Origin: a virus
Lineage: Duplodnaviria; Caudoviricetes
Strand: one strand, 5' to 3'
DNA: 64,000 nucleotides
IMG/VR virus record: IMGVR_UViG_3300011226_000001
Location: 96,001-160,000 of that record
Shown here: in pieces, positions 11,221 to 54,466 of the stretch
How the letters are laid out: each line of letters begins with the position of its first letter
How positions within the stretch are numbered: the stretch's first letter is position 1
Position numbers and translations under genes: made by a program
Notes under the pieces: model-generated
The model's database searches: none
The model's input: the letters and a program-made list of their open reading frames with translations, nothing else
What the model was told of the DNA's origin: nothing

Positions 11221-12861
11221 TTACGCTTTGGGACTCAGAATTGACTTGTCGATCATACCGAGCAGGTCAACGATATCGAACGTTGCACCAATCTTCTTCT
11301 GCTTGCCAGTAGCGCCGGTCTGAATTGTCCACGCTTTGTCTGTCAGGCGAATCGTATACATTTTGGTGCCTTTCGCCACAACAACACCATCAGACGTTGC
11401 GGAGACTTGCGACTTAGGCAAATTGTTTTGCAGGGTGTTGCGCAGCGCATTGAAATATTCTTCACGCGCCTGCAAAGGCTTGGCTGCAATCTTACGTGCG
11501 GTAACTTCTGCCAGTTCGTCCACCAGCGAGATATCAGATTTACCTGACGGTTGATACGAAGCTGCTTTGGTGACAGTGATCTTCGGCTCTGTCTTGAAGT
11601 TGATTGTCTGGGCTTTTTGCTTTTTAACCCAAGACATAAATGCTTTGGCCTGCGCCTCATCAGCAAACTGGAAGATTGCGCTGTTCGGCTGCTGGTGCTC
11701 ATTAACGACACTACCTCCTACCGCAACTACACCGCGCTGCAAGAACGACTCAGCAGTCTGGTAGCCAGAAGAACCATCGTGGTCACTCGTAATAGAGTCT
11801 TTATTGCGACGGATTGTCAGTGACCATTCGTGGTCATTCTTCGGTTGTTTGAATTGCAGTTTAAGTGCGCCACCGGCAGCCGACTTAACGCTGACAAAAT
11901 CAAACGTCGAAGAAGCGAGTTTTTCTTTCGAAACACGCTCAGGCTTGCCGATGTGATCACGCACAACACGCGTTGCACCTTCAGGTACTTTACCAGATTT
12001 AGGCAGCTTCGCAGTGGCAGCAAAAGTTTCGCCAGGCTTTCTCGCAGACAACCACTTGAACACTTTCGTTACGTTTGCAGCAGAGCCTAAATCGAAAGCA
12101 GCATCGCCAGCATCAGCTAAGTACCACTTAGGTTTGATACCGGTAGCTTTGAATGCAGCCACCAGCAGCCCGGCGCCGGTCTCGTGTCCGTTACCGTGAG
12201 ACCCAAGACCCAGAAGCGTCGATTGTGTACCGACACCCTTGCGGAACATCAGTGAAGATGTAGTCTCATGGCCTTTAAAGACGCGGCGAATAATGATAGA
12301 CGTGTTTTTGATAGAAGGGTTTTTAACTACACGGTCAATCACGCTCACGTCGTCAGTTGCAGGTGTAGCAGAACCTTTCTTCGGGTCAATCACTTTGTTG
12401 TCTACTGTGGTAGACTCAGGTGCGCCTGGGTTGTCGAGCTTAATCGGCTTCTCTGGCTTGTTGCCAGCAGTACGACGTGCGCGAATCTCTTTTGTCTCTT
12501 GAGCGCGAGCCGCCGCAACATCAGAATGACCAACTAACCACTTCTGAGGAACGCGAATCAGTTTCAACGCTTTGATAGAAGCAGTCAGGGTCTTAGCTAC
12601 AGCAAATGCCCGAGCAGCAGTAATAGTTCTCTTACCGAGTGCAGACGCGGTGAACTTGATGATATCATCATCTTCACCGTCTTTCATCAGCTTGAGTAAA
12701 CCGTCAAGGTGAGCAGTACGCAGTTCTTTGGCGCGACTGAATTTGTCGAGCACTGCGACGATTGAATGGCCCTTAGAGCCAAACATATATACGGCGGCAT
12801 CTTTCTGCGCTTTTGAAGGTGCAGAGGTGGACGCAACGCCTTGAAGTTTTATCAAAGACAT
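11221..12861 (-). CDS. Basic 546-aa protein with leader; putative internal virion protein
   Basis: N-terminus MSLIKLQGVASTSA; CTAATTTT motif upstream at 12900-12907; K/A-rich. Confidence 0.75.
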   Translation of the reverse strand: MSLIKLQGVASTSAPSKAQKDAAVYMFGSKGHSIVAVLDKFSRAKELRTAHLDGLLKLMKDGEDDDIIKFTASALGKRTITAARAFAVAKTLTASIKALKLIRVPQKWLVGHSDVAAARAQETKEIRARRTAGNKPEKPIKLDNPGAPESTTVDNKVIDPKKGSATPATDDVSVIDRVVKNPSIKNTSIIIRRVFKGHETTSSLMFRKGVGTQSTLLGLGSHGNGHETGAGLLVAAFKATGIKPKWYLADAGDAAFDLGSAANVTKVFKWLSARKPGETFAATAKLPKSGKVPEGATRVVRDHIGKPERVSKEKLASSTFDFVSVKSAAGGALKLQFKQPKNDHEWSLTIRRNKDSITSDHDGSSGYQTAESFLQRGVVAVGGSVVNEHQQPNSAIFQFADEAQAKAFMSWVKKQKAQTINFKTEPKITVTKAASYQPSGKSDISLVDELAEVTARKIAAKPLQAREEYFNALRNTLQNNLPKSQVSATSDGVVVAKGTKMYTIRLTDKAWTIQTGATGKQKKIGATFDIVDLLGMIDKSILSPKA

Positions 12862-13292
12862 GTAAGTACTCCGAGTTCGGTTGTGTGTAATGACAGGGGA
12901 AAATTAGTGTTAGAATAAGAAAAGGGCCATCAGATAATCTCTGAAAGCCCTTTTATCGTTAAGCAAGTAGCAACCGGAATTGAAGCGTGTTGTCGCCCTC
13001 TATCTCATGCCAAATAGCTTGACCCACCAGCTCTTGGCCTTTGAAGAAAGAAACTACACTTGACGACTTCTGCTCAGAACGACAATCTTTGGTTGCTTCC
13101 AAGAATTGTTCGCACTGGACGTTTGTCGCCTTCCGCTCACTACAAGCGTTTACTTTATTATTGCACCAGTTCGAAGACCGTGCGTTATACTTCAACCGTA
13201 AGAGGCTACGTCCGCACATGTTATTCTCCAATAACGATATGTCAGCACTACTTGCCAACACATAGAAATTAGATAGCGGGCTAAGATTATTC

Positions 13293-14057
13293 TTAAAAGC
13301 CCGTGAAGTCTCTGAGGATGTATTCCATAAAGAACAAGTGGCGGAAGTGTTCGTGGAAAACGATTCTGTGGTTCTCTGCAAACTTACTGTGCGTAGAGCC
13401 GAGAGACCACAGTAGGTTATGTATTTGCGTCAGGAGTATATCAGGCTGTATACACAGGAACTCCTGCCCGATAGTGATAATCTCTGCGTGTAGCTTGTGG
13501 TAGTCTTCGTTTTCTTTGCACGACATGAGACTATCAATACTGATCGAAGATATGAGATTGGATTGATAGCTAACGTGTTTGCTTTCCAGATTGACGTAAC
13601 TGCGGGCGCCATAATCAAGAATGTGGGCCCATAGATCTGGCGTCTGGTAGACAAGAGACAGCGCACTGTTCTTGAGTTCTGCTTGCCCAGGCTTCTGCTT
13701 CAACGTGTCGATGATATCCAGGACGCGCCCTGAAACTCTACCGAGAGAATCGTCACTGGCGTAGCGCAGATCGTGCATCAACACAATATGAGAGCTGGCA
13801 AATGAAAATTCTTTGTGGCTCACAGGAGGTTCATCAATACCGAAACAGATAAGTGTGTTTGGTAGACTGTTTGAGTTGAGCAATTGTTTGATGTAGGATT
13901 CAACGCTACGTTTTGAAAGGCCTATAATGACCACAGGTTTTGATTTACCGTAGTTCAGGCCGTTATTTTCCAGCGCTCGCGCCATATGGCACAGAGAGCG
14001 GACGTAAGCATCATATGATTCCATAACAGGAATACACAGAGTTTGTACACGAGACAT
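13293..14057 (-). CDS. Hypothetical protein
   Basis: 254 aa, GGAGG SD. Confidence 0.7.
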   Translation of the reverse strand: MSRVQTLCIPVMESYDAYVRSLCHMARALENNGLNYGKSKPVVIIGLSKRSVESYIKQLLNSNSLPNTLICFGIDEPPVSHKEFSFASSHIVLMHDLRYASDDSLGRVSGRVLDIIDTLKQKPGQAELKNSALSLVYQTPDLWAHILDYGARSYVNLESKHVSYQSNLISSISIDSLMSCKENEDYHKLHAEIITIGQEFLCIQPDILLTQIHNLLWSLGSTHSKFAENHRIVFHEHFRHLFFMEYILRDFTGF

Positions 14058-14103
14058 ATTAACCTCCGGGCATAACGCCCATACGTGGAGTTGATTAAGA
14101 GAG

Positions 14104-15126: not shown

Positions 15127-15221
15127 AAAACCCTCAGACAAAAAAAAAATGGGGAGGCCATCCGGCTCTCCCCTGCCCAATTCGGGCTAGACTACACACA
15201 GCATTGTGTTCGGTTTGGTGA

Positions 15222-15923: not shown

Positions 15924-15933
15924 AAGTCACTCC

Positions 15934-16495: not shown

Positions 16496-19021
16496 TTACT
16501 CGTCGTCACCGTCATCAGAAGACTTCGCAGACTTACTGATAGACGCTTTCAACATTTCTTTGCCCTTCGCAGACTGTACGAACTTGAAGCACCACAGACG
16601 CAGACCTGCAGGTTTGACTTTCAGTTTCTTACAGACAGCGACAACTTGTTCCTTGCTGCCGTTGATAAGAGTACGGAAATCATCCCAGTCCATCTTGACT
16701 TCGGACGCAAGAGGACACGGCGCCTTGATCTTGAAGTTCTTACGAGTACCGTTGATCAGACCGAGAACTTTCAGATAGTGCCACGTATCGAACACTGGGT
16801 CGAAGCCGCGCGCTTCACCATTACCGTCAGCTTCCCACAGACGCAACCAAGTGCTCTGGTTCGGGATGCCGCCCATCTTGTTCTTGATGGTCTTAGCAGC
16901 AATGAAGCGATAGCGGTCAGTACCACCTTCGACAGTAACAGACTTCTCTCCGACAACGCCAGGCGCATCTTTGAGTTTCGGCCAACCTTCTGGCACTGCG
17001 CGAGAAGCCAGACGAACACGCACGTCACTGTTATGTGATACGAAACCGTTAGTGATAACCACAGAGGTTTCTTCGACGTTAACGTCCCAGAACTCAACAG
17101 GCTTGTCGAGAGCTTTGAGCGTGAACGGCACAGGCACAATCGAGTTGTCGAAGTTGAACCAGTCTTCAACGTAAGCGAGTTGAGTCATCAGCAGATCGTA
17201 CAGGTCATCGTAGCCTGCAATCTGCTTGTGCAGAATCAGGTCGAGTGCCTGAGCGAAGTCATTCTCTGGCGCCAGATAGATTTTATCCTGACCAGTCTGC
17301 AACTGATAGTCCAGAACGTAGCGAGTCAGTTCAGGGAACACGTCAGCGATAACAGACAGCATCTGCGTTTGACGTTGACGGCTGGTGGCTTCGAACGACA
17401 GACCAACAAACTCACCGTCAGCGTATTGCTCTACTGCTTGCGTCAGTTCATACTTGTTCAGGCCAGGCATGTGAATGCCTTTGCTGTCTGCACAAGCGAG
17501 TACGCCAATATCCAACAACGCGTTCACACACTTCTTATACATCTCAGGATGATCAGCACCACCGATCGTAGAAAGTGTTAGTATGTTGGCCGCATATGTC
17601 GTATCACCGTGAGTAGTCAGTGAGATTTGGCGACTTGTAGCAACGGAACTACCCAATACCCAACGAACATACGCAGACGCACGGTCAAACGCATCAGGCA
17701 CGTTCTGTTTCAGCTCTTTCACTGGAGGCACACGCAGACCCGCATACTGACCTTTCTTATCAGGCCACTTAGCGAGCTGGTCAAGTGTGTTCCACTCAGG
17801 ACGCAGAACCATCATACCTTCTGCTGTCCAGTCGTACATGAACGTGAATTGGCGGTGCTCTGCGCTGCCGATGTATGTGTGGCCACCAGCATTCATTTCG
17901 ATTGGGAACGGAGCGTCATCAACTTTCCACGCACCCTGAATCTTCTGATAACCGTCGAACGATTCAACACGAACTTCGGTGCCAGCTTCCATCAGCTCTT
18001 TGATCTGCGGCGCAGTCAACACGCCGTGGTCGGTACGAATCAGAGTGTCTCGGTCGAAGCAGTAGAACTTCAACGCATCACCGCCAGGCTCATATTCGGG
18101 TGAGCCGAACATTACAGCAGGCTTCTGACGCAACTGGTTAACGCCAACGATGGTCATCATCTTACGACGCATACCACCACGGAAACGTTTGATGCCGTCA
18201 GAGAACATACGCGCTTGCAGTGCCATTGCTTTTGAACCGTCATCGTCATCTACCTGATCAGGCAGCATTGCCGGATAGGAGTCAACGATAACAGCCGCTT
18301 GCATGTGGCCATCAGCAGCAGGAACTTTGAATTGGTTGTTACGACTGAACCACTTCTTGTCGTACTTACCGGCCAGCTTCTTCGCGTTCTCTTTGTTGTT
18401 CTCAAAGAGATAATACGCGGAGCCGTCTTTCTCAACGATCTTGTCAGGCAGACGACGACGCAGCATCGACATATAATCGAAGAAGCGCTCACCGTTGTCT
18501 GGTGCGTAGTAACGAATCTTAGGCTTGATAATCCACGAGCCGTCTTCGTCACGCACACCGAAGATTGTTTTCGGATCGACTTTAACACCGAACGTTTTGA
18601 GCTGACCAGCAACGTATTCAGCATCGGTCGAACCTTCGTAGTCGAACACTACGCTAATGCCAGAGTATTTCAGACGAATCAGACTCGCCATGATACTCAT
18701 GGTCATGGTTGACTTACACGACTGCTCACCGCCGCTGAACGTGTACCAACCGCCAGGTACGATACCGCCGTCAAGGTACATATCAAGCGCGAGCACACCA
18801 GTAGAGATGCGAGGTGCGTGTCGTGCTGCATCGGCAGAACTTACTTTCGTTTTCTTTTCGATGCCGTCGAGCACGTCATCCATCATGCTGCCGAGGTCAA
18901 AGCCTAATACTTCAACGCCACCGATATCATCAGAGGCGACTGCTTTGTCCTTCGACTTAGAGGCTTTGACTTTAGCTTTCTTCTCAGCTTTTTTCTCAGC
19001 CTTGTTGTTCGTTTTTGCCAT
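16496..19021 (-). CDS. recA: RecA/UvsX-like recombinase precursor containing an intein
   Basis: ISTGVLALD..GG, SGGEQSCKST (Walker A variant), IVDS, ALQARMFS, NQLRQK, PGGDALKFY|S and KNKMG. Confidence 0.93.
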   Translation of the reverse strand: MAKTNNKAEKKAEKKAKVKASKSKDKAVASDDIGGVEVLGFDLGSMMDDVLDGIEKKTKVSSADAARHAPRISTGVLALDMYLDGGIVPGGWYTFSGGEQSCKSTMTMSIMASLIRLKYSGISVVFDYEGSTDAEYVAGQLKTFGVKVDPKTIFGVRDEDGSWIIKPKIRYYAPDNGERFFDYMSMLRRRLPDKIVEKDGSAYYLFENNKENAKKLAGKYDKKWFSRNNQFKVPAADGHMQAAVIVDSYPAMLPDQVDDDDGSKAMALQARMFSDGIKRFRGGMRRKMMTIVGVNQLRQKPAVMFGSPEYEPGGDALKFYCFDRDTLIRTDHGVLTAPQIKELMEAGTEVRVESFDGYQKIQGAWKVDDAPFPIEMNAGGHTYIGSAEHRQFTFMYDWTAEGMMVLRPEWNTLDQLAKWPDKKGQYAGLRVPPVKELKQNVPDAFDRASAYVRWVLGSSVATSRQISLTTHGDTTYAANILTLSTIGGADHPEMYKKCVNALLDIGVLACADSKGIHMPGLNKYELTQAVEQYADGEFVGLSFEATSRQRQTQMLSVIADVFPELTRYVLDYQLQTGQDKIYLAPENDFAQALDLILHKQIAGYDDLYDLLMTQLAYVEDWFNFDNSIVPVPFTLKALDKPVEFWDVNVEETSVVITNGFVSHNSDVRVRLASRAVPEGWPKLKDAPGVVGEKSVTVEGGTDRYRFIAAKTIKNKMGGIPNQSTWLRLWEADGNGEARGFDPVFDTWHYLKVLGLINGTRKNFKIKAPCPLASEVKMDWDDFRTLINGSKEQVVAVCKKLKVKPAGLRLWCFKFVQSAKGKEMLKASISKSAKSSDDGDDE
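17030..18061 (-). mobile_element. Intein (344 aa) in RecA
   Basis: Begins CFDRDTLIRT after KFY; block-B-like SAEHRQF; ends WDVNVE..ITNGFVSHN followed by Ser. Confidence 0.92.
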
Positions 19022-21486: not shown

Positions 21487-21816
21487 CTAGATCTTTGTCA
21501 GGCTATCGTGCTGATTTTGGATATCGGTAGCTGTAAGCTCTTTGTCTTCGATAGGCTTGCGCTGGCCTAGATCCGCAGGCTTTGTAATCTTGCGTTCAGC
21601 GGCAGCTTCTTCTTCACGCTCGATACGATCCTTCTCTTTTTCTTCAACCTCTTCCTTAGGAGTGTCTATGCCATACTCGTCTGCGATACGCTTTTGCTCT
21701 TGCAATTCGAGCGCACGTTGCTGACCATCAGTAGGTGCCAGCTCTTGTGCTCGTGCGTCTGCCTCGTTTTGACGGTCAACACGGATTTCATGCGAGAGAC
21801 TAACTAACATTTCCAT
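21487..21816 (-). CDS. Charged protein with VSLS leader
   Basis: Start MEMLVSLSHE at 21816 with GGAG SD. Confidence 0.7.
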   Translation of the reverse strand: MEMLVSLSHEIRVDRQNEADARAQELAPTDGQQRALELQEQKRIADEYGIDTPKEEVEEKEKDRIEREEEAAAERKITKPADLGQRKPIEDKELTATDIQNQHDSLTKI

Positions 21817-24991: not shown

Positions 24992-24996
24992 CGAGA

Positions 24997-26078: not shown

Positions 26079-26555
26079 CTATTCGATGTCCTCATCATCA
26101 GTGCTTTCAGCATCTGCATCCCCGTCATCACTTTCGGGTTCGTCTGCGTCAGGGTCTTCTGCGTCTTCGTTGTCTGCATCTCCAGCGTCGTCAGATTTCT
26201 TTCCACCTTTCTTAGCTTTAGACTTTCCATCGGAATCGTCTCCAGAGTCATCGGAAGAGTCATCTGTATCATCGTCGCCTCCATCTGAATCAGTGTCGGT
26301 ATCAATGTCAGTATCGTCTTCTTCGGGTTTGTCATCGCCCTTTTTCTTGGCGCCTTTCTTACCCTTTACAGAATCCCCGCCACCAGCTTTCTGCGCCAGT
26401 TTCTCTTTGTCTTTCGCTTCTTCCGTGAGACGCAGTTTCTTTTCGAGACTTGCGTAATCAGACACGTCAACGCGCCCTGTGTTAGACTCAGGACTTGATA
26501 CCTTGCTGCGGTTCTTGTCTGTAGAGTCTTGGCTCAGGCTTACATAAATTTCCAT
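26079..26555 (-). CDS. Asp-rich disordered protein with VSLS leader
   Basis: Start MEIYVSLSQD at 26555 with GAGGT SD. Confidence 0.75.
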   Translation of the reverse strand: MEIYVSLSQDSTDKNRSKVSSPESNTGRVDVSDYASLEKKLRLTEEAKDKEKLAQKAGGGDSVKGKKGAKKKGDDKPEEDDTDIDTDTDSDGGDDDTDDSSDDSGDDSDGKSKAKKGGKKSDDAGDADNEDAEDPDADEPESDDGDADAESTDDEDIE

Positions 26556-26974: not shown

Positions 26975-28062
26975 AGCTCAAATGTTTTTACGATATGCTT
27001 CGGACGTTGAGACTTCGGCTTCTTGTCCGGCAGCAGACCTTGTTGTTGAGTTTTCCGTCCTGTGCTTACAATCTCCATATAAGTCAGGTCGGGGTTGGCC
27101 ATGATTCGCTGCTCTAACTTCTTCATGAAGTCAATCATGTGTGATTGAATAAAGCAATAGTCAACAAAAGGGCATGTATCATATCCGTGGAACTCGTCCC
27201 AATAATACTCGGCGCTCTTGCATGGCTTACGTTTGATAGCTGGCAGCAGGTCACCCGTACGCGCCGATTTTACCGCAGCGTCCCATGCGCGTATCTGTTC
27301 CATCATAAAGTCTTTCGCACGTTTCGACTCTGCCTCGTCAAACACAAAGGTCTTTTCGACAAACTTCTTCGGGTTGTCGCGTGGCACGTAAACGAGGGTA
27401 TAGTCCACGATGTTATAGCCGTAACGTTTTTTCAGCAGGTACGCGTATGTTGCGATCTGAAAGCGATGGTACTTAACGAAGAATGTTCCGTCAGCGGCTT
27501 TCGTCACCATGGTAGACTTCAAATCGATCAGGCTGTATGTGCCGTCAAGATTATCAATCAGCCCATCGACGTAACCCTTGAGTGACTTATACAGGACTTT
27601 GAGTTCTGCGTATGCCATGGGTTTGTCACACGTCGGACAGCGATTGTTCGTGCTTCGAGTTCGCGTGTACTTGCCCTTCTTATATTTACCGTCAACCATT
27701 TTACCTTTGGTCTTTGGGTATTCAGGGCATTTCTCGTTCGTACATTTCCAGTGACCAACCATCTGACCACTGTGCCCCAGAGCATTCTGCAACGATTCGT
27801 GCATCCCTGTCCCTGCTTTCGCAAAGATGTTCAACAACGTACCGGACTCACCAGTCATGCAGTTGTTATGCTTCTGATAAATCAGTTTGGCAGTTTCTTG
27901 AATCGCACAGATGGGAAACATTGAAGGGCTGACGCGTTTCTTCGGCCAGCGCTTCTCTTGATTCTTTACGTCAAGGGCAGCATCGATCATTTTGCCGATG
28001 CGTGACATTACGCGAGTGTCATTGACTCGCGCTGGTACGTTTGCGAACGTTCTCATAGTCAT
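26971..28062 (-). CDS. Cas4/RecB-like PD-(D/E)xK exonuclease
   Basis: SPSMFPIC, GTGMHE, GYVDG, LIDLKS, QIATYAY and C-terminal C..CPFVDYC. Confidence 0.8.
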   Translation of the reverse strand: MTMRTFANVPARVNDTRVMSRIGKMIDAALDVKNQEKRWPKKRVSPSMFPICAIQETAKLIYQKHNNCMTGESGTLLNIFAKAGTGMHESLQNALGHSGQMVGHWKCTNEKCPEYPKTKGKMVDGKYKKGKYTRTRSTNNRCPTCDKPMAYAELKVLYKSLKGYVDGLIDNLDGTYSLIDLKSTMVTKAADGTFFVKYHRFQIATYAYLLKKRYGYNIVDYTLVYVPRDNPKKFVEKTFVFDEAESKRAKDFMMEQIRAWDAAVKSARTGDLLPAIKRKPCKSAEYYWDEFHGYDTCPFVDYCFIQSHMIDFMKKLEQRIMANPDLTYMEIVSTGRKTQQQGLLPDKKPKSQRPKHIVKTFEL

Positions 28063-28354
28063 CCTCGCTTACGGCAATCATGCCTTTGAAAAATACGAAC
28101 TTGTAGTAGCGAGTACCAAACAGGTATGAACGCACTTCTACACCTTCTTCCTTGGTTGCGTACATCAGGCGAAGACTCTTGGTCAGTGCTTCAACGTCAG
28201 TGTCAACAGGCAGCGACAGGCCAATCATATCGCCCTGCGTATTGAACGCACCTAAAGTCTGAGGTTCAACTCGTATCAAGTCACATAGCTGTAACCAGTG
28301 CTTATCGTAAAAGCGCCGTACAGCGGTATGCACGTAGCGATGTGGATTACCCAT
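28019..28354 (-). CDS. Hypothetical protein
   Basis: 111 aa, AGGA SD. Confidence 0.62.
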   Translation of the reverse strand: MGNPHRYVHTAVRRFYDKHWLQLCDLIRVEPQTLGAFNTQGDMIGLSLPVDTDVEALTKSLRLMYATKEEGVEVRSYLFGTRYYKFVFFKGMIAVSEDDYENVRKRTSASQ

Positions 28355-28419
28355 TCTAGTTATTCCTTTATCTGTAAATATGCTTATATGCGTAAATTAC
28401 GAAATGAATAGAGGATGGT

Positions 28420-33846: not shown

Positions 33847-33945
33847 GTTAGGCTCCGTGATTTAACATACTATAAATAAGTATTTATCAGGCTGAAGGTT
33901 GAAATTTTCTTCTCACTAATTTCAACCACACAGAGGAGAACTTCT

Positions 33946-35065: not shown

Positions 35066-35725
35066 ATGGCACGTATCATGATCAGTTTGAACAGCGCAGC
35101 AAACGGCGATATGACAAACAAGGCACAGCCTGCATCAGATATCCCTGACAGTTGGCCAGACCCGAACAAGCTGACGGGTAAGATTCCATTTGACGCTAAT
35201 CAAAGTGAAATAGCGGACGATATGTTCGATCCTGATAAAGCTGTTGAAGGTAATGCAGATCTGCGTAACGGCAACACGAAGCCAGGCGCAGAGGGCAAAG
35301 CGTCACGCCCTGACGAGAACTTCCGTGCTGGTGGGCGCACAACGAATGAAGTCGAATCCACTCACTGCGATAAGCAGAATGCTCTTGGGCAGCCTGTGCG
35401 CTTCACGAAAGACGACATTATGGGTGGTGGAATGTCGTTTAAAGACCTGTTTGGTGACGTATTCGGCGATATCTTTGGCAATCGCCGTGTGCAAAAAGCG
35501 ATTAGCGGTGCTATGGAGCGCGAAAGCACTCGGTCACTGTCAAAAGGTCGTTCGAAGTCTGCGAAAATGCGCTCGCAGATGCTTAAAATGGTCATGCCTG
35601 AGCTATCGCGCGAACAGGGCGAACGTTTAGCGACTGCAATGGCAGAGCACGACGGGGAGACTGTCAAACGCATTCTGACGCAGATAGGAGTGAAGCTAGG
35701 GAAGCGCGTTTCTCAGAAAAAATGA
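35066..35725 (+). CDS. Protein with ISLNS leader variant
   Basis: Start MARIMISLNS at 35066 with AGGAG SD. Confidence 0.7.
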   Translation: MARIMISLNSAANGDMTNKAQPASDIPDSWPDPNKLTGKIPFDANQSEIADDMFDPDKAVEGNADLRNGNTKPGAEGKASRPDENFRAGGRTTNEVESTHCDKQNALGQPVRFTKDDIMGGGMSFKDLFGDVFGDIFGNRRVQKAISGAMERESTRSLSKGRSKSAKMRSQMLKMVMPELSREQGERLATAMAEHDGETVKRILTQIGVKLGKRVSQKK

Positions 35726-36113: not shown

Positions 36114-37691
36114 ATGAGTCAGCCATTTCTGATTAAAAATCCCTCGTACCAAGAGCTTCAAGCAATTCAATGGGTACGAGATAACATAGTTTTCGCCTGT
36201 CCGTACAACGGACCGGAAGAGAACGAAAAGGAGTTCAGGGAGCAAATCAACCTGTTCTTCTGGCATGTGCTTAACGTGTCTATCTATCGCTCCAAGCGTA
36301 ACAGGGGCGAGCTGTTCGGGGAAACGTTCTGTCCGTTCAGTTATTCGTACGGGCGATCTGTTCTGCCGCTAGTTTTCGGGGATTATCGACTGAAAACAGG
36401 TGCTGTTGCTGCATCGAAACAGAAAAGAGGTTCTAATCAGTTCAATAGGGCCCTTGACTGGTTAATCGAAAACGTGTTTGACGTTAAGCGTAAGAAGCTA
36501 GGCAAGAATGGCCAGCCGGGGAAATGTCGAGAGTATCGTGTTAAGCGATTCCACCTTGAGCAGATGTACCCTGTCGTACCGAGAACGCGATATGATTTGC
36601 TTAATACTGTGCGACTATATAGCCCACTGAAAGCACCTCAGTCTCGTTTCGGGCATACGATAATCGAGCGCATCCACGCGGCAGCGAAGAAGAAATTCAC
36701 GACGCGCAAACACGACCTGAGTCCCATCGACAAAAACTCGGGCCGTGAAGTCAAACGCTATTACAAACAGGTGTTAGATGTTTTAGCACCGAATGAAATC
36801 TTAATCGAACCGATACTTGCTTTCCTTGAGCAAATGTCCTTGCGTAACAACAAGAAAGACCAGAAGAAATTTCAACAGGCGATGTATCTGTTGGATTCTA
36901 TTCTGTCTGGGCCGATTGAGATTGTTGACGAAGACCCTCTGACAATCAGATACTGGCCGGCCTATAAAGTTGCGACTAAAGGTGGGCGACTGTTTGAGAT
37001 TGGCGGTGGTTTTCAAAACATGCCGAGCAAATTGAAACAGGCGTGCTATGTTGTTGGCGTAAACTGGGATATGAAGTCCAGCCAGCTCAACATCATTAAG
37101 AGGGAGTTTGCTGCGTACAACATCCCTTGCGCTCTTGTTGAAAGCCTTAATTCTGTAAATGAACTAGCAGAGATGATTGGTGAAAGTGTCGCAACTACCA
37201 AGAAGTGTTTCTATGGTACTGTGTATACTCTCGGTAAGATTCGACGTTCGGATAAAGGTCAGATATACGCGTCATTACTTGAATCGCATAAAGGTGATCG
37301 TGCGGCGACACACGCTATGCTTGACAAGTGGGACAAGTTGACCGAAGGTCTTGTTGAAGGATTGGTTATCTTACAGCAGCTTTATGAGAAGCGAGCACGA
37401 CGTTCAGGAAACAGAATGTACCTGACGTGTGCTACAGGCACAAAGTTCTCATGGCCGTTGAAAGGACCGTCATCGAAAGACAAACGAACGATGCTCAACC
37501 ATATCATTACAGGATTAGAGAGTTCGTATTTGTTTGAAGTCGTCAGGGATTCATCTCAGGTACGTTCCGTGTATTCTTTCGAACACGATGGTGCGCTGCT
37601 CCAACCGCTGCGCAATCTATCAAGCGACTACGCTAAGTTTGTTCGTAAGAAGTTTTCTGACACGATTGATTTTACTGAGGACAGCGAATGA
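36114..37691 (+). CDS. Divergent family-A-polymerase-like protein lacking exonuclease domains
   Basis: GGRLF..FQNMP, WDMKSSQLNI (motif A), TKKCFYGTVY (motif B), LNHIITG and FEHDG (motif C), in PolA order. Confidence 0.55.
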   Translation: MSQPFLIKNPSYQELQAIQWVRDNIVFACPYNGPEENEKEFREQINLFFWHVLNVSIYRSKRNRGELFGETFCPFSYSYGRSVLPLVFGDYRLKTGAVAASKQKRGSNQFNRALDWLIENVFDVKRKKLGKNGQPGKCREYRVKRFHLEQMYPVVPRTRYDLLNTVRLYSPLKAPQSRFGHTIIERIHAAAKKKFTTRKHDLSPIDKNSGREVKRYYKQVLDVLAPNEILIEPILAFLEQMSLRNNKKDQKKFQQAMYLLDSILSGPIEIVDEDPLTIRYWPAYKVATKGGRLFEIGGGFQNMPSKLKQACYVVGVNWDMKSSQLNIIKREFAAYNIPCALVESLNSVNELAEMIGESVATTKKCFYGTVYTLGKIRRSDKGQIYASLLESHKGDRAATHAMLDKWDKLTEGLVEGLVILQQLYEKRARRSGNRMYLTCATGTKFSWPLKGPSSKDKRTMLNHIITGLESSYLFEVVRDSSQVRSVYSFEHDGALLQPLRNLSSDYAKFVRKKFSDTIDFTEDSE

Positions 37692-38191
37692 GTTTGCTTG
37701 AAGTTCTATTTCGGTTGGAGTTTGTTCTGTCCGAAAGTGTTGAACTGCCGCCGAGCCAATGGCCGATTCTGGCTAATAAAAAAGTTGTCAATCGCCTGAT
37801 CGAAACTGCGAGTCTGACGGACATAGAGAGTACCTCTCCTGAGCTTCATCGGAGTTACTTGAAGTGTGTTGCAGGCTTCGACCCTAAAAAGCCGTACTCC
37901 TCAATCAAGCGTCTTGTTGATTCTGGAGACTATACGATCTGCTATGCTCGTGATTATTTGAACGTGCGTTTCCCTAAGAAAGCCCAGAAGTTCACAGAGC
38001 TTCATGACGCAATCTGGAAACGTGTTATCGAAGACGACGAAGACTGGCAGGCGGAATTAGAAGGTCAAGAGTTCACAGCTATGTTCGGTCACGACGAAGA
38101 CATAGCTGACTTTGCTGAATTTGCAGAAGCAAATGACGCCATGGAAGATTGTGATTTTCCTTGGACCCATCTGAAACTCAAACCTGTTTAG
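37688..38191 (+). CDS. Hypothetical protein
   Basis: 167 aa, ATGA overlap. Confidence 0.68.
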   Translation: MSLLEVLFRLEFVLSESVELPPSQWPILANKKVVNRLIETASLTDIESTSPELHRSYLKCVAGFDPKKPYSSIKRLVDSGDYTICYARDYLNVRFPKKAQKFTELHDAIWKRVIEDDEDWQAELEGQEFTAMFGHDEDIADFAEFAEANDAMEDCDFPWTHLKLKPV

Positions 38192-38926: not shown

Positions 38927-39901
38927 ATGAAACATAGTGAAAGAGATTACGTTGTCGTAAGACAGGGTAATAAAAATCATCTTGTTCTGGCTACTGGCAA
39001 AACTGTTGGCATTTTGGCTAATACACTCGGTTCGCCTGATCCAGAAACAATCAAGTTCAGTCCTAAAGCTGGTGACGTTCTCGCTGTCTTGGGCCCAGAC
39101 CCTGAGCCAGGTATGTCAGTATGTGGTGTGACTGTAAGACCGTACGCTTCAATGCCTGTCTATGGCGGTCTGCCTCGTCTTGCTCTTTACGGGCGTGAGG
39201 CCGAAGTCGCTAAAGCGTGTCGCATCGCAGTCAAGAAACTTCCGAAGATTATCGAGAAGTACAATCTGCAAGAAGCGGTTCGTCGCTGCAAGCAAATCAA
39301 CTTCATCCAGCAGTCTGGTTCGAAGACGCACTCGTTCAAATCCAAGTTCCGTAAGGACGAATGGCACGACGAGATCAATGTGTTCGTTGATCGTGACTGC
39401 GTATCGGTTGACGTGTATAACAAACTGATGATTGCTCTTGGCGAATCAGTGTGGACGCACCTGCTGAGTTCTAAACGCAAAGTCCGCTGGATGATGCTGT
39501 TTAAGAAACTGCGTAACGTGCAGCGCCTGAACCTGAGTACGCTGACTGGTCTGCTCGAAGACTTCCAGCGAGCTGGTGACGCTAAAGACGTGAAGAACGT
39601 TGTGTCCGAAGACCTGCTGCCTTTCGTTGACATGATCTTCCGAACGATTGCGCGTCAGAACAGTATCTCGGTCCGTGAGCTGGAACTGATTGCTGCCAAC
39701 GACAGTCAGGCTGTTGCCGAACTGTGGCCCGGTGAGATGCAGATTGCTGAGGGTCGTCCTGACCTTGATAAAGCGATTATGAAAAATCCTACCACGCTGT
39801 TTGCTAACGTGTTCGCTCGTCATATCGACGGCATCGACACAGGCAAGACGTTGCGCAAGGCAATCAAGAACAGCCTGAAAGAGATCAGTGGCGCAGAGTA
39901 A
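38927..39901 (+). CDS. Hypothetical protein (324 aa)
   Basis: Long ORF in operon. Confidence 0.75.
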   Translation: MKHSERDYVVVRQGNKNHLVLATGKTVGILANTLGSPDPETIKFSPKAGDVLAVLGPDPEPGMSVCGVTVRPYASMPVYGGLPRLALYGREAEVAKACRIAVKKLPKIIEKYNLQEAVRRCKQINFIQQSGSKTHSFKSKFRKDEWHDEINVFVDRDCVSVDVYNKLMIALGESVWTHLLSSKRKVRWMMLFKKLRNVQRLNLSTLTGLLEDFQRAGDAKDVKNVVSEDLLPFVDMIFRTIARQNSISVRELELIAANDSQAVAELWPGEMQIAEGRPDLDKAIMKNPTTLFANVFARHIDGIDTGKTLRKAIKNSLKEISGAE

Positions 39902-43547: not shown

Positions 43548-43612
43548 TTCAGAAATGTCTGACTCGTTAGTAATTTTAACTACAATCAATCATACAGCTC
43601 TGGAAGACAATA

Positions 43613-44149
43613 ATGGAAATCTTTGTATCACTCTCGAAGATTACAGTTGGGTCTGAGGGCATGGCGAAGATCGACAGTCCATGTACCACACCTGACTTAA
43701 AGAAACTCGCATCGCTTATCTTTGGTCTTGCACGATTTGACCAAGACGTATTCGGTTCAATCACCACACGCAAAGGCACGTTGTCTGCTGTGCGTGAAGG
43801 TGAAGAGGGTGCTATCTGGTTGCTGGGCGATAAACGTCTTACAGACGCCAATGATTTTATGCAGGTCATGAAGCCAATGCCTATGGTTGGTCCTACTGGC
43901 GCTGGTGATTTCTACATGACGTTGAACGTACCACAACGTCCTACTCAATTTTTGATCTGCCCTAAGGGTGGTCACTCCATTTTGTGGTTCGCTAATGACA
44001 AAGCTCTTATCGACCACTACGCAGAACGCGATGCCAAGCCATCTCTCAAGATGATGCTTACAGGCAATCGCGGAAACGCATCCGTGATTCGTTCGTGGTC
44101 TGGCGCGGATATCGAAGACGAAGAAATTCTTCAACTTCAATCCGCATGA
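43613..44149 (+). CDS. Protein with VSLS leader
   Basis: MEIFVSLSKI; GTAATTTT upstream. Confidence 0.72.
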   Translation: MEIFVSLSKITVGSEGMAKIDSPCTTPDLKKLASLIFGLARFDQDVFGSITTRKGTLSAVREGEEGAIWLLGDKRLTDANDFMQVMKPMPMVGPTGAGDFYMTLNVPQRPTQFLICPKGGHSILWFANDKALIDHYAERDAKPSLKMMLTGNRGNASVIRSWSGADIEDEEILQLQSA

Positions 44150-44282: not shown

Positions 44283-44729
44283 ATGAAAATTCTTATCAGC
44301 CTGAGCACTCGCACGAGTCCTCTCGAAGATACGAAAGTCAGTCTTGAGAACTCGAAAGATGATCTCAAGGGTGCCCAACGCCGTTCGCAGTTAGCTCGTA
44401 AGAAACTTAACGAGAAACAGTCTGACGGTGATACCAAAGGCGTTAAGTCTGCCCGTGCCGAAGTTGATGCTACGCGCACATCGGTCAAGACTCAACAGGA
44501 CATTGTTCGAACCAACCAACAACGTGTATCCCGTGCTGCTGTCGTTGATCGTTTGGTCAAAGAATGGAACCGCCTTGAGAAGTTGAAAGGCACTGAACAA
44601 GACACCGACCAGATTAAGACACAACGTGCTGACCTGTCGAAGAAGATCATCGAAGCACGTAAGGCACTTAGAGCAATCAAACGCCCTAAGTCTACGATCA
44701 AGAAAGTTAAGAAGCCACGGAGATACTGA
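44283..44729 (+). CDS. Basic coiled-coil protein with ISLS leader
   Basis: Start MKILISLSTR at 44283 with AGGAG SD. Confidence 0.72.
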   Translation: MKILISLSTRTSPLEDTKVSLENSKDDLKGAQRRSQLARKKLNEKQSDGDTKGVKSARAEVDATRTSVKTQQDIVRTNQQRVSRAAVVDRLVKEWNRLEKLKGTEQDTDQIKTQRADLSKKIIEARKALRAIKRPKSTIKKVKKPRRY

Positions 44730-48876: not shown

Positions 48877-48877
48877 T

Positions 48878-50479: not shown

Positions 50480-50515
50480 CGCTAATTTTAGTCTGTCTAA
50501 AAGAGGACTTTATCT

Positions 50516-51088
50516 ATGGACGCATTGACGTTTAGAAAGAAAGCTATTGCGGAAGTTATTGATCGCGAAGGTGGCGAGAAGTATACAAACCGCGCTGCTG
50601 ACCGTGGCGGTCCTACTCGTTGGGGCGTCACTGAAAAGAATGCTCGTGCCTATGGCTACAAGGGTGCGATGCAAGACCTGCCTTATGAGATTGCGTATGC
50701 GATCTACAGCGCTAATTTCTGGGACTTCTGCAAATGCGATCAGCTTGCGAAGTATAGTCAGGAACTGGCACTGTGGGTATTCGACTACGCAGTAAACTCA
50801 GGGCCACCAGCAGCAATCGCAGAGTTGCAAGACCAATTGAACATCTTAAACAGCCGAGGCAGACTCTATCCTGATTTTGCTCCTGCTGCGAATATTGGTC
50901 CGAAGACTCTTGCTGCTCTGGATGCGTACTGCAAAGTGCGTGATATCAAAGTTCTGGCGTATGCCTATAACGGCTGTCGTATTGCGAAGTTGAAAAACAT
51001 CGCTAAGGCAGACGAAACTCAGGAAGATAACATTTATGGTTGGTACCAGCGTGTTATCACAATCACTAAACAAGTTGGAGTAAACTAA
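50516..51088 (+). CDS. Endolysin, glycoside hydrolase family 108 with PG-binding domain
   Basis: REGG..YTN..DRGGPTRWGVT, FDYAVNSG, IGPKT and GW..R. Confidence 0.9.
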   Translation: MDALTFRKKAIAEVIDREGGEKYTNRAADRGGPTRWGVTEKNARAYGYKGAMQDLPYEIAYAIYSANFWDFCKCDQLAKYSQELALWVFDYAVNSGPPAAIAELQDQLNILNSRGRLYPDFAPAANIGPKTLAALDAYCKVRDIKVLAYAYNGCRIAKLKNIAKADETQEDNIYGWYQRVITITKQVGVN

Positions 51089-51090
51089 TC

Positions 51091-51426
51091 ATGTCTCTTA
51101 TCAAACTGAACCTGAACGACGTTGTTAAATCCGAGTCTGCATCTCCTGCGCTGAACGCCTTCTTCAAGGGTCTGGACAAGAAAGCTCTATTCGAGATCAT
51201 CGACGATGGTATGCCGTCTGACCTCGAAGGTCCGAACGACATTCTGGATCTGCGTTTCATCAGCGCTACCGGCGACACCGCTCGTTTCGGCATCATCACC
51301 AAAGATGAAGACGAAGGTTTCAACGTGACTGGTCTCGACATTCGTTTCGAAGGTGAGTTCGACGACGAAGGCGATATCCAACCTACTCTGGCTGCTGCTA
51401 AGAAAGCTCTCGCCCGTCTGCGTTAA
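51091..51426 (+). CDS. Acidic protein with SES leader
   Basis: MSLIKLNLNDVVKSESA. Confidence 0.72.
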   Translation: MSLIKLNLNDVVKSESASPALNAFFKGLDKKALFEIIDDGMPSDLEGPNDILDLRFISATGDTARFGIITKDEDEGFNVTGLDIRFEGEFDDEGDIQPTLAAAKKALARLR

Positions 51427-52031
51427 TGGAAATCTACGTCTCCCTATCTAAGGCGACGCAAATCACAGCCCAGGCACTGCAAAGTGTCGTGGGCTTTCGT
51501 GTATTAGATCACAAACTTTTACGCGAAGAAGATGGTTTCGCCTTCTACGCGTTCGTCACTTTTATGCGAGATGACTCTGGTGATTATGAGCTTAATATCG
51601 CCAAGTTGATTCGTAAAGGATTGACAACGCATAGCTTCAAGCTCAATAGCCTCACTACAATCGGTGACGGCTATCAGACGATCTATGAAGCCGCAAACGC
51701 TATGGAGCGATTGAATGTGAACGGTAAGTTCCTGTCTCAGTCCTCCCCTCCACCAATTCAAAGCGTTGTGTTTCAGCTAAGTGATTTCCGCATTCCATTG
51801 ACACCTGACTTGCAGATTAAAGTCGATGCGTGGTGTGAAGCACAGGCTATCTGTCCTCTGCGGTATGCAGTTGTGAATCCGAGAACTGAGTCGATCGAGG
51901 TCTCTTTCAAAGACGCTTCGGCACACAACTCAGATATCATTGAGCAGATGCTACGCAACTCCCTGTACCAAGCGCTGGGTGATTACTCGGCCGGTAAAAA
52001 CTTCGATCTCCCAGGCAGAGCCCTGGTCTAA
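51426..52031 (+). CDS. Protein with VSLS leader
   Basis: MEIYVSLSKA; TAATG overlap. Confidence 0.72.
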   Translation: MEIYVSLSKATQITAQALQSVVGFRVLDHKLLREEDGFAFYAFVTFMRDDSGDYELNIAKLIRKGLTTHSFKLNSLTTIGDGYQTIYEAANAMERLNVNGKFLSQSSPPPIQSVVFQLSDFRIPLTPDLQIKVDAWCEAQAICPLRYAVVNPRTESIEVSFKDASAHNSDIIEQMLRNSLYQALGDYSAGKNFDLPGRALV

Positions 52032-52041
52032 GGGAAATAGA

Positions 52042-53007
52042 ATGGCACTCATTCGTATTAATATCGCGGACACGTTGTTGTCCGAATCTGCTGCAAAGAA
52101 ACCTGCGTACCACATCGTACAATCTTCTAGCGGTCCTATGATCGTTATTGATTCGAAGCACAAGCCTGTTGTCACAAAGGCCGTCACTTCTCTCGCTTCC
52201 GCGAAGAAGCTTGGTCTGTCTGCGGCTAAACTTAGCCAAGCCACCGAGAAACTTAAACTCAAGTTGAAGTCTACGCGTGATGCAGGTAAGAAAGGGCCGC
52301 TACGTGACAAGATCAAAGCAAACAATGCTACGATCAAGAAGGACGTTGCTGCGGCCAAAAAGCTGGCTAAAGATGCACTGTCCTCCTTAGCTAAAGCTGG
52401 CTTGAAGGTCTTAGATCCCACAGTGCGTCCTACGTACATCACATCTACCCAGCCTGACTATACTATTGGTAAAATCGGTAAAGCTAAAACGAATAGCTTC
52501 TGGGTAAAAGCGAGCGGTACGCATCGTGCACCTTCTCTGCTCAAGCCTCGATACGCGACTGGTGAGAAGTTCGATAAGATTGGTGCTTCTCCTGCTGCGA
52601 AGAAATTGAAGCCGGGTACTGCACCTAATGCGAAAGCTAAGCCTAAGCCTAAGAACGAGAATAGCTTGTGGCGTCACTATGACAAATCAAGCGGACCGAA
52701 AGGCGAACAGTATAAAACTGAGGGTCAGCTTCGTGATGCTGCTCGTCAGTCGTTGCAGGCGCAGTCTCGTCAGTGGGATAAAGACACCCGCATGTCCAAG
52801 CGTATGCTGAAAGAGTTGAATGGCGGTAAAGCTATCACTTCTGCTGCTGGCTGGACCGGTACTGTCGAAAAAGGTAAAGGTGTATTCACCAATAAGAAGG
52901 GCCAGAAGCTGGTGGTTAAGAAATCCGATATGGCTAGATTCGGTTTAACTCCTGATTCTTTCAAACGCGCTTTGGGTGAGTCCAACATCACAGACACTAA
53001 CTGGTAA
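52042..53007 (+). CDS. Lys/Ala-rich protein with SES leader
   Basis: Start MALIRINIADTLLSESA at 52042. Confidence 0.75.
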   Translation: MALIRINIADTLLSESAAKKPAYHIVQSSSGPMIVIDSKHKPVVTKAVTSLASAKKLGLSAAKLSQATEKLKLKLKSTRDAGKKGPLRDKIKANNATIKKDVAAAKKLAKDALSSLAKAGLKVLDPTVRPTYITSTQPDYTIGKIGKAKTNSFWVKASGTHRAPSLLKPRYATGEKFDKIGASPAAKKLKPGTAPNAKAKPKPKNENSLWRHYDKSSGPKGEQYKTEGQLRDAARQSLQAQSRQWDKDTRMSKRMLKELNGGKAITSAAGWTGTVEKGKGVFTNKKGQKLVVKKSDMARFGLTPDSFKRALGESNITDTNW

Positions 53008-53044
53008 ATCGCTGCATCTGCGTGGCGGTTAAGGAATAAAACAA

Positions 53045-53956
53045 ATGGCTCTTATTAGAATCAATATTGCAGATTCTTTAGTATCTGAGTCTGCTCGTGT
53101 TAAGGTAGTAAGCTATAAGGTAGCTAAAGTCGGCGGCAAAACTACGCTCGTAGTTGTGTCTGAGCGAAAAGCTGAATTGCAGGCTGTTGTCGGTCTGTTG
53201 AAGAAAGCGAAAACTGCCGCTGTGTCTGGTATGTCTTCACGTATCAAAGCTGCGACCGCTTTTACCAAAGCACAACAAACTCCTAAAGGCCCGCGTAAGA
53301 CTGCGTTGCGCGAAACCTATAAGACCGAGAAAGCTAAATCGTCTGCGGATATCAAGCAGGCTAAGAAGTTGATCAAAGAAGCGAATGCCCACGCGAAGAA
53401 ACACGGTTTCGGTGGACTGAACCTTCCGCTGTCTGCATCTGATATCGTAATGTCAGGTCCGGGTCTGGCCAAGGCTCTGAAAACTGTTCGCGGTATCAAG
53501 CTGACTGAGTTCGGTATTACTGGCAAGCGCGGTACATTCAAGCCTGTATTCATGAAGGCTGAAAAGTTGACCGCAGGCAAAGCCAGCACGCCTGCAACTC
53601 GCAAGGCCAAAGCAGACGCGAAAGCTCCATCTGCTAAAAAGCGTGCCGCGAAGAAACCCGTGGAAATGAACCCGATCGCACTGACTGCAAAAGTCAATAA
53701 GTCTCTGCCGAAGATGCTTAAAACTGTAGGTATCACTTTTGACCAGAACAAGAAATCAGGTTCTGTTAAATACGATACCAAAGATCTCAAAGGCAAGGCC
53801 ATAGGCAAGAACAACATTGTTATGACTGAGCTGCGTATGCACCTTGAGGATAAAAATATCCCAGTGCAGAAAACGGCAAATGGCTTTGAAGTCCCTGGCG
53901 TTATTAAGTTCACTCAGGGTGAGAAGGGTGTTACGTTCAAACGTCTGGGTAAGTAA
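53045..53956 (+). CDS. Lys/Ala-rich protein with SES leader (paralogue of 52042-53007)
   Basis: MALIRINIADSLVSESA. Confidence 0.75.
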   Translation: MALIRINIADSLVSESARVKVVSYKVAKVGGKTTLVVVSERKAELQAVVGLLKKAKTAAVSGMSSRIKAATAFTKAQQTPKGPRKTALRETYKTEKAKSSADIKQAKKLIKEANAHAKKHGFGGLNLPLSASDIVMSGPGLAKALKTVRGIKLTEFGITGKRGTFKPVFMKAEKLTAGKASTPATRKAKADAKAPSAKKRAAKKPVEMNPIALTAKVNKSLPKMLKTVGITFDQNKKSGSVKYDTKDLKGKAIGKNNIVMTELRMHLEDKNIPVQKTANGFEVPGVIKFTQGEKGVTFKRLGK

Positions 53957-54466
53957 TTGCAGATCTTCGTCAGCCTAAGTGCGCCTACAATCTACTATCG
54001 CGGTCTTGCAGAAGACTGGTCAGATGAACATGCTAAGAAGCAACACATGACTTGGGTAACACCAGATCGTGCGTATGCTGAGAAGTATGCGGAAGGTGGG
54101 CGCCTCTACAAGTTTCATGCGGACCCAGGTCGCTATGCCAGCCTGAAATTCCGTTCTCTGTGGACGGAAGTACGGTTCGCTGAGATTTATAGACGAGTGA
54201 AACAGCTAATCATGGAAGCCTTTCAGTTGCATCTGGTTGGCAAAGATGAAGCGATAACACTCGTCGGTCGTCTGGACGCTCTGAACAAACACATACCTGC
54301 TAATCAACACAAGCGAGTGTACATGTGGTGGGACGAGTACACAGAGATCAGTAAAATCCTAAAACTGGCTGGCTATGATTCTATCAAAGGCAATGAGGGT
54401 GAGCACCATGACGTGCCTACTTTCGGTATCTTTGATCATACGCGAGTCAGGATGATTAAGGAGTAA
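53957..54466 (+). CDS. ADP-ribosyltransferase-like protein with VSLS leader (TTG start)
   Basis: MQIFVSLS; YYRG..WVTPDRAYAEKYA..GYDSI..GIFD resembles ART-PolyVal-type pattern. Confidence 0.55.
   Translation: MQIFVSLSAPTIYYRGLAEDWSDEHAKKQHMTWVTPDRAYAEKYAEGGRLYKFHADPGRYASLKFRSLWTEVRFAEIYRRVKQLIMEAFQLHLVGKDEAITLVGRLDALNKHIPANQHKRVYMWWDEYTEISKILKLAGYDSIKGNEGEHHDVPTFGIFDHTRVRMIKE

Follow-up and report, generated by a model that had tools for sequence, protein, structure and literature searches.

A group of proteins encoded in the genome of a jumbo Erwinia phage share short N-terminal leader peptides ending in S-x-S, and these leaders are probably T4-like capsid-targeting propeptides that would be removed after S-x-S by a protease of the gp21 type. 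The stretch analysed (the window, 64,000 bp) comprises bases 96001-160000 of the 268,224-bp phage genome, which has direct terminal repeats and falls in the Alexandravirus, PaBG/"Lupandier" group. Two types of leader were distinguished, namely class I, M-x-I/L-F/Y/L-V/I-S-L-S, as in the peptide MEIYVSLS, and class II, M-S/A-L-I-K/R-L/I…S-E/T-S-A. In the present study, the position, enrichment, conservation and modularity of the motif were established, together with the fold of the head protease and the ADP-ribosyltransferase (ART) identity of leader-bearing proteins.

The leaders would be N-terminal propeptides of head-internal, probably ejected, proteins, in which a short hydrophobic segment ending in φ-x-S-x-S (φ, hydrophobic residue) would bring the protein into the assembling scaffold core, and the gp21-type head maturation protease would then cut after the second Ser, removing the leader. 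The same protease would cut itself after residue 9, take about 67 residues off the major capsid protein, and cleave the acidic scaffold at the numerous S-x-S it contains, the predicted specificity of the enzyme being φ-x-S-x-S/(small), where the slash, here and below, marks the predicted cut. ADP-ribosyltransferases, Lys-rich DNA-binding-like proteins, acidic polypeptides and an SNF2 protein of 1950 amino acids (aa) would be the cargoes.

The closest public genomes are those of Erwinia Alexandraviruses, with pEa_SNUABM_17 at 88% DNA identity, followed by Alexandra and Dickeya AD1; farther relatives are Y3, Yoloswag, the Dickeya JA phages, Yersinia fHe-Yen9-02, PaBG and Lu11. Yersinia phage phiR1-37 was considered as a relative and dropped, the protein searches having led to Alexandra, Y3, Yoloswag, AD1, the JA phages, fHe-Yen9-02 and PaBG.

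Leader peptides and their conservation

Genes are named here by the coordinate of their first base in the window, or in the genome where so stated. The eleven leader N-termini that an earlier note on this DNA had reported proved correct throughout, in position as well as in start codon:

21487-21816, minus strand: class I, 109 aa, MEMLVSLS/H…, charged coiled-coil body
26079-26555, minus strand: class I, 158 aa, MEIYVSLS/Q…, disordered poly-Asp/Lys body (35% D+E), phrog_30142
43613-44149, plus strand: class I, 178 aa, MEIFVSLS/K…
44283-44729, plus strand: class I, 148 aa, MKILISLS/T…, basic coiled-coil body (27% K+R)
51426-52031, plus strand: class I, 201 aa, MEIYVSLS/K…
53957-54466, plus strand: class I, 169 aa, TTG start, MQIFVSLS/A…, body a putative divergent ART-PolyVal ADP-ribosyltransferase
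35066-35725, plus strand: class I variant, 219 aa, MARIMISLN/S…, disordered, C-terminus basic
11221-12861, minus strand: class II, 546 aa, MSLIKLQGVASTS/A…
51091-51426, plus strand: class II, 111 aa, MSLIKLNLNDVVKSES/A…
52042-53007, plus strand: class II, 321 aa, MALIRINIADTLLSES/AAKKP…, Lys-rich body
53045-53956, plus strand: class II, 303 aa, MALIRINIADSLVSES/A…, Lys-rich paralogue of 52042

BLAST agreed with the earlier statement that the bodies are unrelated apart from the 52042/53045 pair; further, 12861 shares a domain with gene 169667 of the genome (listed below). No functions were assigned to the leader proteins by Pfam and PHROGs searches. The TTG start of 53957 immediately follows the TAA stop of the 53045-53956 gene (window 53954-53959), and the start codon of 51426 shares bases with the 51091 stop codon (TAATG); translation of the leader genes in the endolysin operon, to which these belong, is tightly coupled. 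Ahead of the internal ATG of 53957, 30 residues are conserved in the homologues (74-95% identical, 169-170 aa long), and this conserved stretch shows the upstream TTG to be the real start.

When a strict class I pattern was applied to the 268-kb genome, its matches in the window fell in seven real genes, each time at residue 3-4, and it had no match in the interior of a real gene anywhere. For class II, the head M[SA]LI[KR][LI] was found at residue 2 of four genes and at one internal site. The earlier note had proposed a scan of all N-termini in this genome and its relatives; in an unbiased all-against-all comparison of residues 2-9, class I was the only N-terminal cluster of at least three members in this genome, Y3 and JA29; there was no cluster in PaBG and none in the internal control windows. 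In the same three genomes, the density of φ-S-x-S in residues 1-20 was 3-4 times that beyond residue 80, so that the motif is indeed enriched at N-termini relative to internal sequence. For eleven control motifs (φTxS, φAxS, φSxE, φSxG etc.), the density was level or rose by no more than about twofold within the first ten residues, and φSxE was not enriched at N-termini. The longer motif φ-x-S-x-S occurred 31 times in the first 20 residues against 16.0 expected in this genome (p = 6e-4), 30 times against 14.9 in Y3 and 33 times against 15.0 in JA29 (p 4e-5 to 6e-4 across the three genomes).

Since the Ser and Leu codons vary among the leader copies and the upstream DNA is unrelated, the leaders are conserved at the protein level, as had been proposed from the codon differences. 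Between this phage and JA29, leader identity was 50-75% and body identity 25-44%, with 59 synonymous codon differences among 163 leader codons. The Y3 orthologue of 21816 has a leader 88% identical and a body 47% identical; φφφ-S-L-S is retained in the Y3 and JA29 orthologues of 26555, and the JA29 orthologue of 51426 begins with MEILVSIS, its body being just 25% identical. Additional S-x-S N-termini were found elsewhere in the window and the genome:

Window 37688-38191, plus strand: extra class II-like candidate, 167 aa, MSLLEVLFRLEFVLSES/V…
Window 60236-61519, plus strand: 427-aa protein beside the head-tail connector, conserved SISAS/VDY (S-A-S = residues 14-16) and LLSVS/AK
Genome 57280, minus strand: MKIYVSLS
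Genome 163205, plus strand: 1950-aa SNF2 protein, MMNQMISVS/A
Genome 169667, plus strand: 340-aa protein, …IVSVS/A
Genome 216300-216974, plus strand: KMPT-N protein between tail-tube genes, leader MLILLSES/A
Genome 227497-227955, plus strand: Nudix hydrolase, class I-like leader (M)MINVSLS/A here and in Y3

No orthologue of the 37688 protein was found in Y3 or JA29, and a weak further case in the window starts at 44729 on the plus strand. The sets of orthologues mark the junction exactly: S-x-S is fixed, the leader varies, and body homology begins at the next residue.

KMPT-N protein, 216300, plus strand: MLILLSES/ARK here, MLIFLSES/ARK in Y3, MLFFVSVS/APR in JA29
1950-aa SNF2 protein, 163205, plus strand: MMNQMISVS/ATATQQ here, MINISTS/ATATQQ in Y3, MQIFSTS/AAQP in JA29, …LNSLS/AA in PaBG
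340-aa protein, 169667, plus strand: IVSVS/AANKKQI here, VVESTS/AVTKKQI in Y3

The 34 leader proteins from the three genomes fell into 18 body families unrelated by BLAST. In one of these families the leader is of class I in Y3 (MKIFISLS/AKTP…) and of class II here (…LLSES/AAKKP…, as in 52042), and homology begins at the residue right after S-x-S.

S-x-S in the protease, scaffold and capsid protein

The head-assembly genes are located at 205-213 kb of the genome, in the order protease, scaffold, decoration-like protein and capsid protein. The head maturation protease (genome 206501-207280) was recognised by its PHROG match, phrog_18299, and the major capsid protein is phrog_2522; the gene between those for scaffold and capsid encodes the virion structural (decoration-like) protein.

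In the scaffold-like protein, which is acidic and 672 aa long, S-x-S occurs 24 times, its Ser content predicting 8.3 (p = 6e-6); this is the strongest enrichment of the proteome, and four [FI]DSES[SG] motifs divide its acidic blocks. The JA29 scaffold contains 27 against 11.4 expected, many at aligned positions. In the protease, the N-terminus reads MTQTVKSES/F, with S-x-S at residues 7-9, and the VKSES is the same as that in the leader of 51091. Of 46 diverse homologues, with identities reaching down to about 40%, most retain this S-x-S/F, with 2-20 residues preceding it and with a variable x (E, A, H, K, T, R, Q, L…). The capsid protein has two sites, L-S-E-S/T at residues 32-35 and V-H-S-H-S/G at residues 63-67. 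The second, ending at residue 67, is S-x-S in 31/31 homologues of at least 56% identity, with x and the flanks varying; the first is widespread as L-S-x-S-T-G-E.

An AlphaFold2 (AF2) model of the protease, built on the 46 homologues (pLDDT 85.7), resembled T4 gp21 (5JBL) more closely than any other structure (Z 10.2, root-mean-square deviation 2.7 Å, 138/165 residues), followed by the varicella-zoster and cytomegalovirus proteases at Z 6-7.4; the protease has the T4 gp21 fold. Foldseek alone gave a weak result (E 0.05), with T4 gp21 ranked first. His124 and Ser181 are invariant. No match to Pfam Peptidase_S77 (PF03420) was obtained at E <= 1 in the whole genome, and a search of the protease profile against PDB sequences returned zinc-finger noise only, so the relationship to gp21 is visible by fold only. 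Relative to T4 gp21, the protease has an insertion in which Cys191 and Cys206 are invariant and Cys194 and His208 nearly so; it looks like a Cys3-His zinc-ribbon-like element.

Two further genes were noted. A KMPT-N (PF20294) protein with an HExxH motif is encoded between the protease and scaffold genes (genome 207280-208407). The 324-aa protein at window 38927-39901 (plus strand) matches the PHROGs entry 'peptidase' (phrog_17197, E = 7e-121), with no Pfam match, and could be a second processing enzyme.

Cargo, gene context and alternative explanations

The bodies of the leader proteins are often extreme in charge, as with the poly-Asp of 26555 and the Lys-rich 44283, 52042 and 53045; the internal proteins and peptides of T4 are basic or acidic. 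The earlier note had seen an ART-like body among them, and two findings bear on ADP-ribosyltransferases as cargo. A class I protein of JA29 is an ART-PolyVal (PF18760, E = 2.3e-27), its domain following the leader and a short linker. Additionally, an exhaustive search with the family profile of 53957 matched 102 proteins; the profile regions coincide with PF18760 in P0196, P0197, P0203 and P0204 (E 1e-22 to 1e-24), and many matches lie within polyvalent proteins of 2,000-5,000 residues with MuF, SLT or toxin-like nuclease domains. The Atlas feature score of 53957 to the ART-PolyVal/AcrIF11 clusters was 0.94-0.95. By itself, 53957 has no Pfam match at E <= 1, BLASTP against the JA29 ART was not significant, and the AF2 model from 9 close homologues was poor (pLDDT 62). 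Taken together, the profile evidence suggests that the 53957 body is a divergent ART-PolyVal ADP-ribosyltransferase.

Stand-alone ART homologues start at YRG, or carry a class I-type leader prefixed to it (MRIIISLS/, MQIQLSLS/, MKLILSMS/, also …VSLA/ and …VSVA/). The ART effector domain thus appears to occur bare, tagged, or inside giant virion-delivered proteins, as a portable packaging tag predicts. On metagenome contig SRR6913565 (1965-3511), three tandem genes start with MKIQLSMS, MQIQLSLS and MKVELGLSES, the first two being ART-PolyVal-type; it is a leader-effector cassette outside the cultured phages.

Some virion data are available for PaBG. Its Coomassie-visible virion bands, analysed by mass spectrometry, include gp202, a 221-kDa "RuvB helicase-like" protein, which was identified by gene order, mass and BLAST as the orthologue of the S-x-S-tagged 1950-aa SNF2 protein. 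The bands include gp83 as well, which is encoded beside the scaffold gene and has an N-terminus, MLIKINLLEAVAAKA (MLIKINLLEAV…), resembling class II; no Pfam match was found for it. Where the Erwinia phage has S-E-S-A, gp83 has A-A-K-A, and the PaBG cleavage rule may for this reason differ from S-x-S. For PaBG, maturation is reported to cost the capsid protein about 20% of its mass, and processing of several virion proteins is reported too (PMC7412058). No virion proteomes of Y3 and fHe-Yen9-02 were found in the open literature searched, and the Dickeya JA/AD1 paper is without virion mass spectrometry.

Two proposals of the earlier note stand in part. Cleavage at S-x-S has in-silico support in the scaffold enrichment, the conserved capsid and protease sites, the retention in orthologues, the exact junction and the gp21 fold, whereas cutting itself is what we infer. 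The portable tag is favoured by the leader swap on one body family and by the bare, tagged and fused ART domains; packaging, sufficiency of the tag and injection of the leader proteins belong to the same inference.

The gene context was examined through the promoter-like motif TAATTT, behind which most leader genes had been said to lie in the form (C/G)TAATTT. There are 56 copies on both strands, and 29/56 sit 28-114 nucleotides (nt) upstream of same-strand starts, about 4.5 being expected by position. The motif stands at the head of the two sheath genes, the operon for scaffold and capsid, and several of the leader operons, and a CTAATTT lies 44 nt upstream of 60236. In the window, the copies that concern the leader genes are as follows:

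12901-12907, minus strand: CTAATTT, 45 nt upstream of 12861
33916-33922, plus strand: CTAATTT, heading the 33946-35725 gene pair that includes 35066
43570-43576, plus strand: GTAATTT, 42 nt upstream of 43613
50482-50488, plus strand: CTAATTT, heading the endolysin operon with 51091, 51426, 52042, 53045 and 53957

So, the motif directly precedes 12861 and 43613 and heads the operons with 51091-53957 and 35066, and for 26555 and 21816 it is only distant. A GTAATTT at 28394-28400 precedes a 111-aa open reading frame (28019-28354, minus strand) that is annotated in pEa_SNUABM_17, and by long-range extrapolation it may head the long minus-strand block with 26555 and 21816.

Besides the endolysin operon, the window encodes UvsX/RecA-like, SSB, sigma factor, clamp loader and SbcC proteins of recombination and replication. 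The right end of the window holds the start of the virion module, where the head-tail connector (62627) is encoded. The RecA/UvsX-like protein (16496-19021, minus strand) has 841 aa, a Lys-rich N-terminal extension and a Pfam RecA match in two stretches, and the pEa_SNUABM_17 counterpart is annotated at 3576 bp; this size gap points to an inserted element, perhaps an intein, in either copy. Just downstream of the endolysin/leader operon, a 121-aa protein (55551-55916, plus strand) matches Tlde1 / L,D-transpeptidase (PF10908, E = 1.5e-17), a domain otherwise known in effectors of type VI secretion.

Several observations weigh against capsid targeting followed by S-x-S cleavage. Most leader genes are situated among replication and recombination genes, and their products are labelled hypothetical in Y3 and other GenBank records. 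The count of STAATTT in the window is not above that in shuffles, so only its placement is informative, and 21816, 26555 and 44283 are not directly behind it. The leader is not universal among orthologues: that of 51426 in Y3 has VSLA, with Ala at P1 and no S-x-S; 35066 retains its leader in Y3 and lacks it in JA29; and the Nudix protein is without it in JA29 (MKVILTLD) and in PaBG. In some clades the first capsid site reads L-D-x-K/T-T. PaBG, with a protease of the same family, has no class I leaders and neither N-terminal nor scaffold enrichment. Between this phage and JA29, 20/57 S-x-S in the first 40 residues are retained (35%, with x changed in half), about 17% being expected from serine conservation alone, and genome-wide φSxS retention is 27%, above the same 17% but inside the 9-43% range of the control motifs. 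Although significant, this retention is modest, since S-x-S often arises by chance, and it would lend weak support if taken alone; some N-terminal S-x-S must be chance, e.g., in a baseplate-hub-like 898-aa protein, where JA29 does not have the motif.

The main rival explanation accepts S-x-S as the head-protease site and takes the leaders for P-side recognition residues only, prohead entry being governed by the bodies or their partners, with no portable address. The sequence before S-x-S does vary in length and composition (MTQTVKSES, MMNQMISVS, MLILLSES, classes I and II), and according to T4 reviews the capsid-targeting sequence (CTS) is common only to IPII and IPIII, the localisation of other core proteins being unexplained. 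We nevertheless consider this explanation unlikely, as recognition alone would hardly select two discrete classes well upstream of P5 (e.g., M-[SA]-L-I-[KR]-[LI]-N, 10-16 residues before the cut), swap these classes on one body family, or equip with a leader an ART domain that would otherwise have to be fused to polyvalent proteins of the MuF type. The location of most leader genes among replication genes would suit leaders that dock another common partner or serve as degrons for a host protease such as ClpXP on early or middle proteins, unrelated to the capsid, and the class II head S-L-I-K-L resembles ClpX N-motif 1 (polar-φ-φ-basic-φ). Such a role is quite improbable, given that it accounts neither for the recurrence of S-x-S at conserved positions of scaffold, capsid protein and protease nor for the TAATTT motif common to several leader operons and structural genes.

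Functionless relics of duplication, or of a recombination cassette made up of a promoter and first codons, would be in keeping with the clustering of leader genes at 43.6-44.7 kb and 51.1-54.5 kb and with the paralogy of some (52042/53045). This origin seems highly improbable when the upstream DNA is unrelated and the codons differ, the leaders are better conserved than the bodies across genera with abundant synonymous change, and the bodies represent 18 unrelated families. Host signal peptidase I (LepB) follows a small-x-small (-3, -1) rule with A-x-A type sites, and S-x-S followed mostly by A/S/G/T resembles such a site. The chance that the leaders are secretion signals cut by this enzyme is nonetheless close to nil: class I leaders, tried as Sec signal peptides, have 8 aa, of which 3-4 are hydrophobic, and Glu, Gln or Lys (mostly Glu) as the second residue, without a basic n-region or an h-region of 10-15 residues, and the motif also occurs in proteins of cytoplasmic assembly (capsid, scaffold, protease). 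Degrons, relics and secretion signals alike leave the motif in these three proteins unexplained.

No publication describing an S-x-S leader motif was found in the literature searched. If confirmed, the rule would differ from every protease rule in that literature, all of which have Glu at P1. For an extended version of the capsid-targeting interpretation we see even chances: a gp21-fold clade would have switched from Glu at P1 to Ser at P3 and P1, in co-evolution with two interchangeable mini-tags (8 and ~16 aa), each sufficient to load any protein into a jumbo-phage head; a regulon of 15-25 injected effectors per genome would be defined in this way. These effectors, readable from sequence, would be ADP-ribosyltransferases, the SNF2 giant protein, and histone-like and polyacidic proteins. 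If true, capsid targeting with S-x-S cleavage would give the PaBG/Alexandravirus/Sasquatchvirus/Salmondvirus jumbo phages their first specificity rule for a prohead protease and would allow their head-internal or ejected proteins to be listed from sequence, including ADP-ribosyltransferases with a likely role in host takeover or anti-defence. Moreover, it would offer a natural comparison of one effector domain delivered via an 8-aa tag or a giant polyvalent fusion, and a very short tag for loading large phage capsids, like the T4 CTS for T4.

Comparison with known systems

The phages phiKZ, 201phi2-1 and SPN3US are likewise jumbo phages with many head or ejection proteins that carry N-terminal propeptides removed at a three-residue motif, and their proteases (gp175/gp245-type) self-process, with a tendency to a small P1', in which they are similar to the system described here. 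Their rule (S/A/G-x-E; A-x-E) has Glu at P1, whereas here the junction Ser is conserved and φSxE is not N-terminally enriched; their propeptides are mostly long (111-254 aa) and do not form a shared tag, in contrast to the shared leaders of 8-17 aa. The S/A/G-x-E comparison made in the earlier note thus holds as an analogy and fails as membership, which was rejected. The host side differs too: a phage sigma factor is encoded by members of the "Lupandier" group, for which no nucleus formation is described (PMC7412058), and the PaBG-group paper, in which the phage-encoded σ70-type factor works with core RNA polymerase, reports host RNA polymerase use, unlike phiKZ. The idea of the leader as a phage-nucleus import signal was dropped because that paper never mentions a nucleus.

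Herpesvirus assemblin shares the fold superfamily (Z 6-7.4), the small P1 and a tendency to hydrophobic P4/P5. Its sites have the form (V/L/I)-x-A/S, with Ala at P1 and Ser at P1', and herpesviruses use no N-terminal cargo tags. The polyvalent/MuF fusions have in common with the leader proteins the ART-PolyVal PF18760 effector and its presumed delivery with DNA; they are proteins of 2-5 thousand residues, whereas the effector here stands alone, as a small protein behind an 8-aa leader.

The closest parallel is T4, in which gp21 becomes active by cutting nine residues from its own N-terminus (PMC9958956), gp23 loses 65 residues, the scaffold is digested to peptides, and small N-terminal peptides are removed from the internal proteins and the ADP-ribosyltransferase Alt. 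The marks of the T4 type were found in the present system, i.e., a short N-terminal peptide on unrelated proteins, the same motif in capsid, scaffold and protease, and a gp21-fold protease. As with the CTS of IPII/IPIII and the small N-terminal peptides taken off IPI and Alt, a leader of ~8-17 aa is borne by unrelated, often highly charged proteins and ends in the cleavage motif; there is a separate scaffold core, full of sites; the protease motif ends at residue 9 (nine residues in T4) and the capsid site at residue 67 (65 in gp23); and the cargo includes an ADP-ribosyltransferase, like that of T4 with Alt. Unlike T4, the predicted cut follows S-x-S, with small polar P1 and P3, and not L/I-x-E; there are two interchangeable leader classes, and the protease is below Pfam S77 and has the Cys3-His zinc-ribbon-like insertion. 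Homology to the T4 CTS with its L/I-x-E motif was considered and rejected, the leaders being M-E-I-Y-V-S-L-S or M-S-L-I-K-L…S-E-S-A with Ser at P1 and having no sequence similarity to the CTS. By this analogy, the leaders appear to resemble the T4 CTS in mechanism and not in sequence membership.

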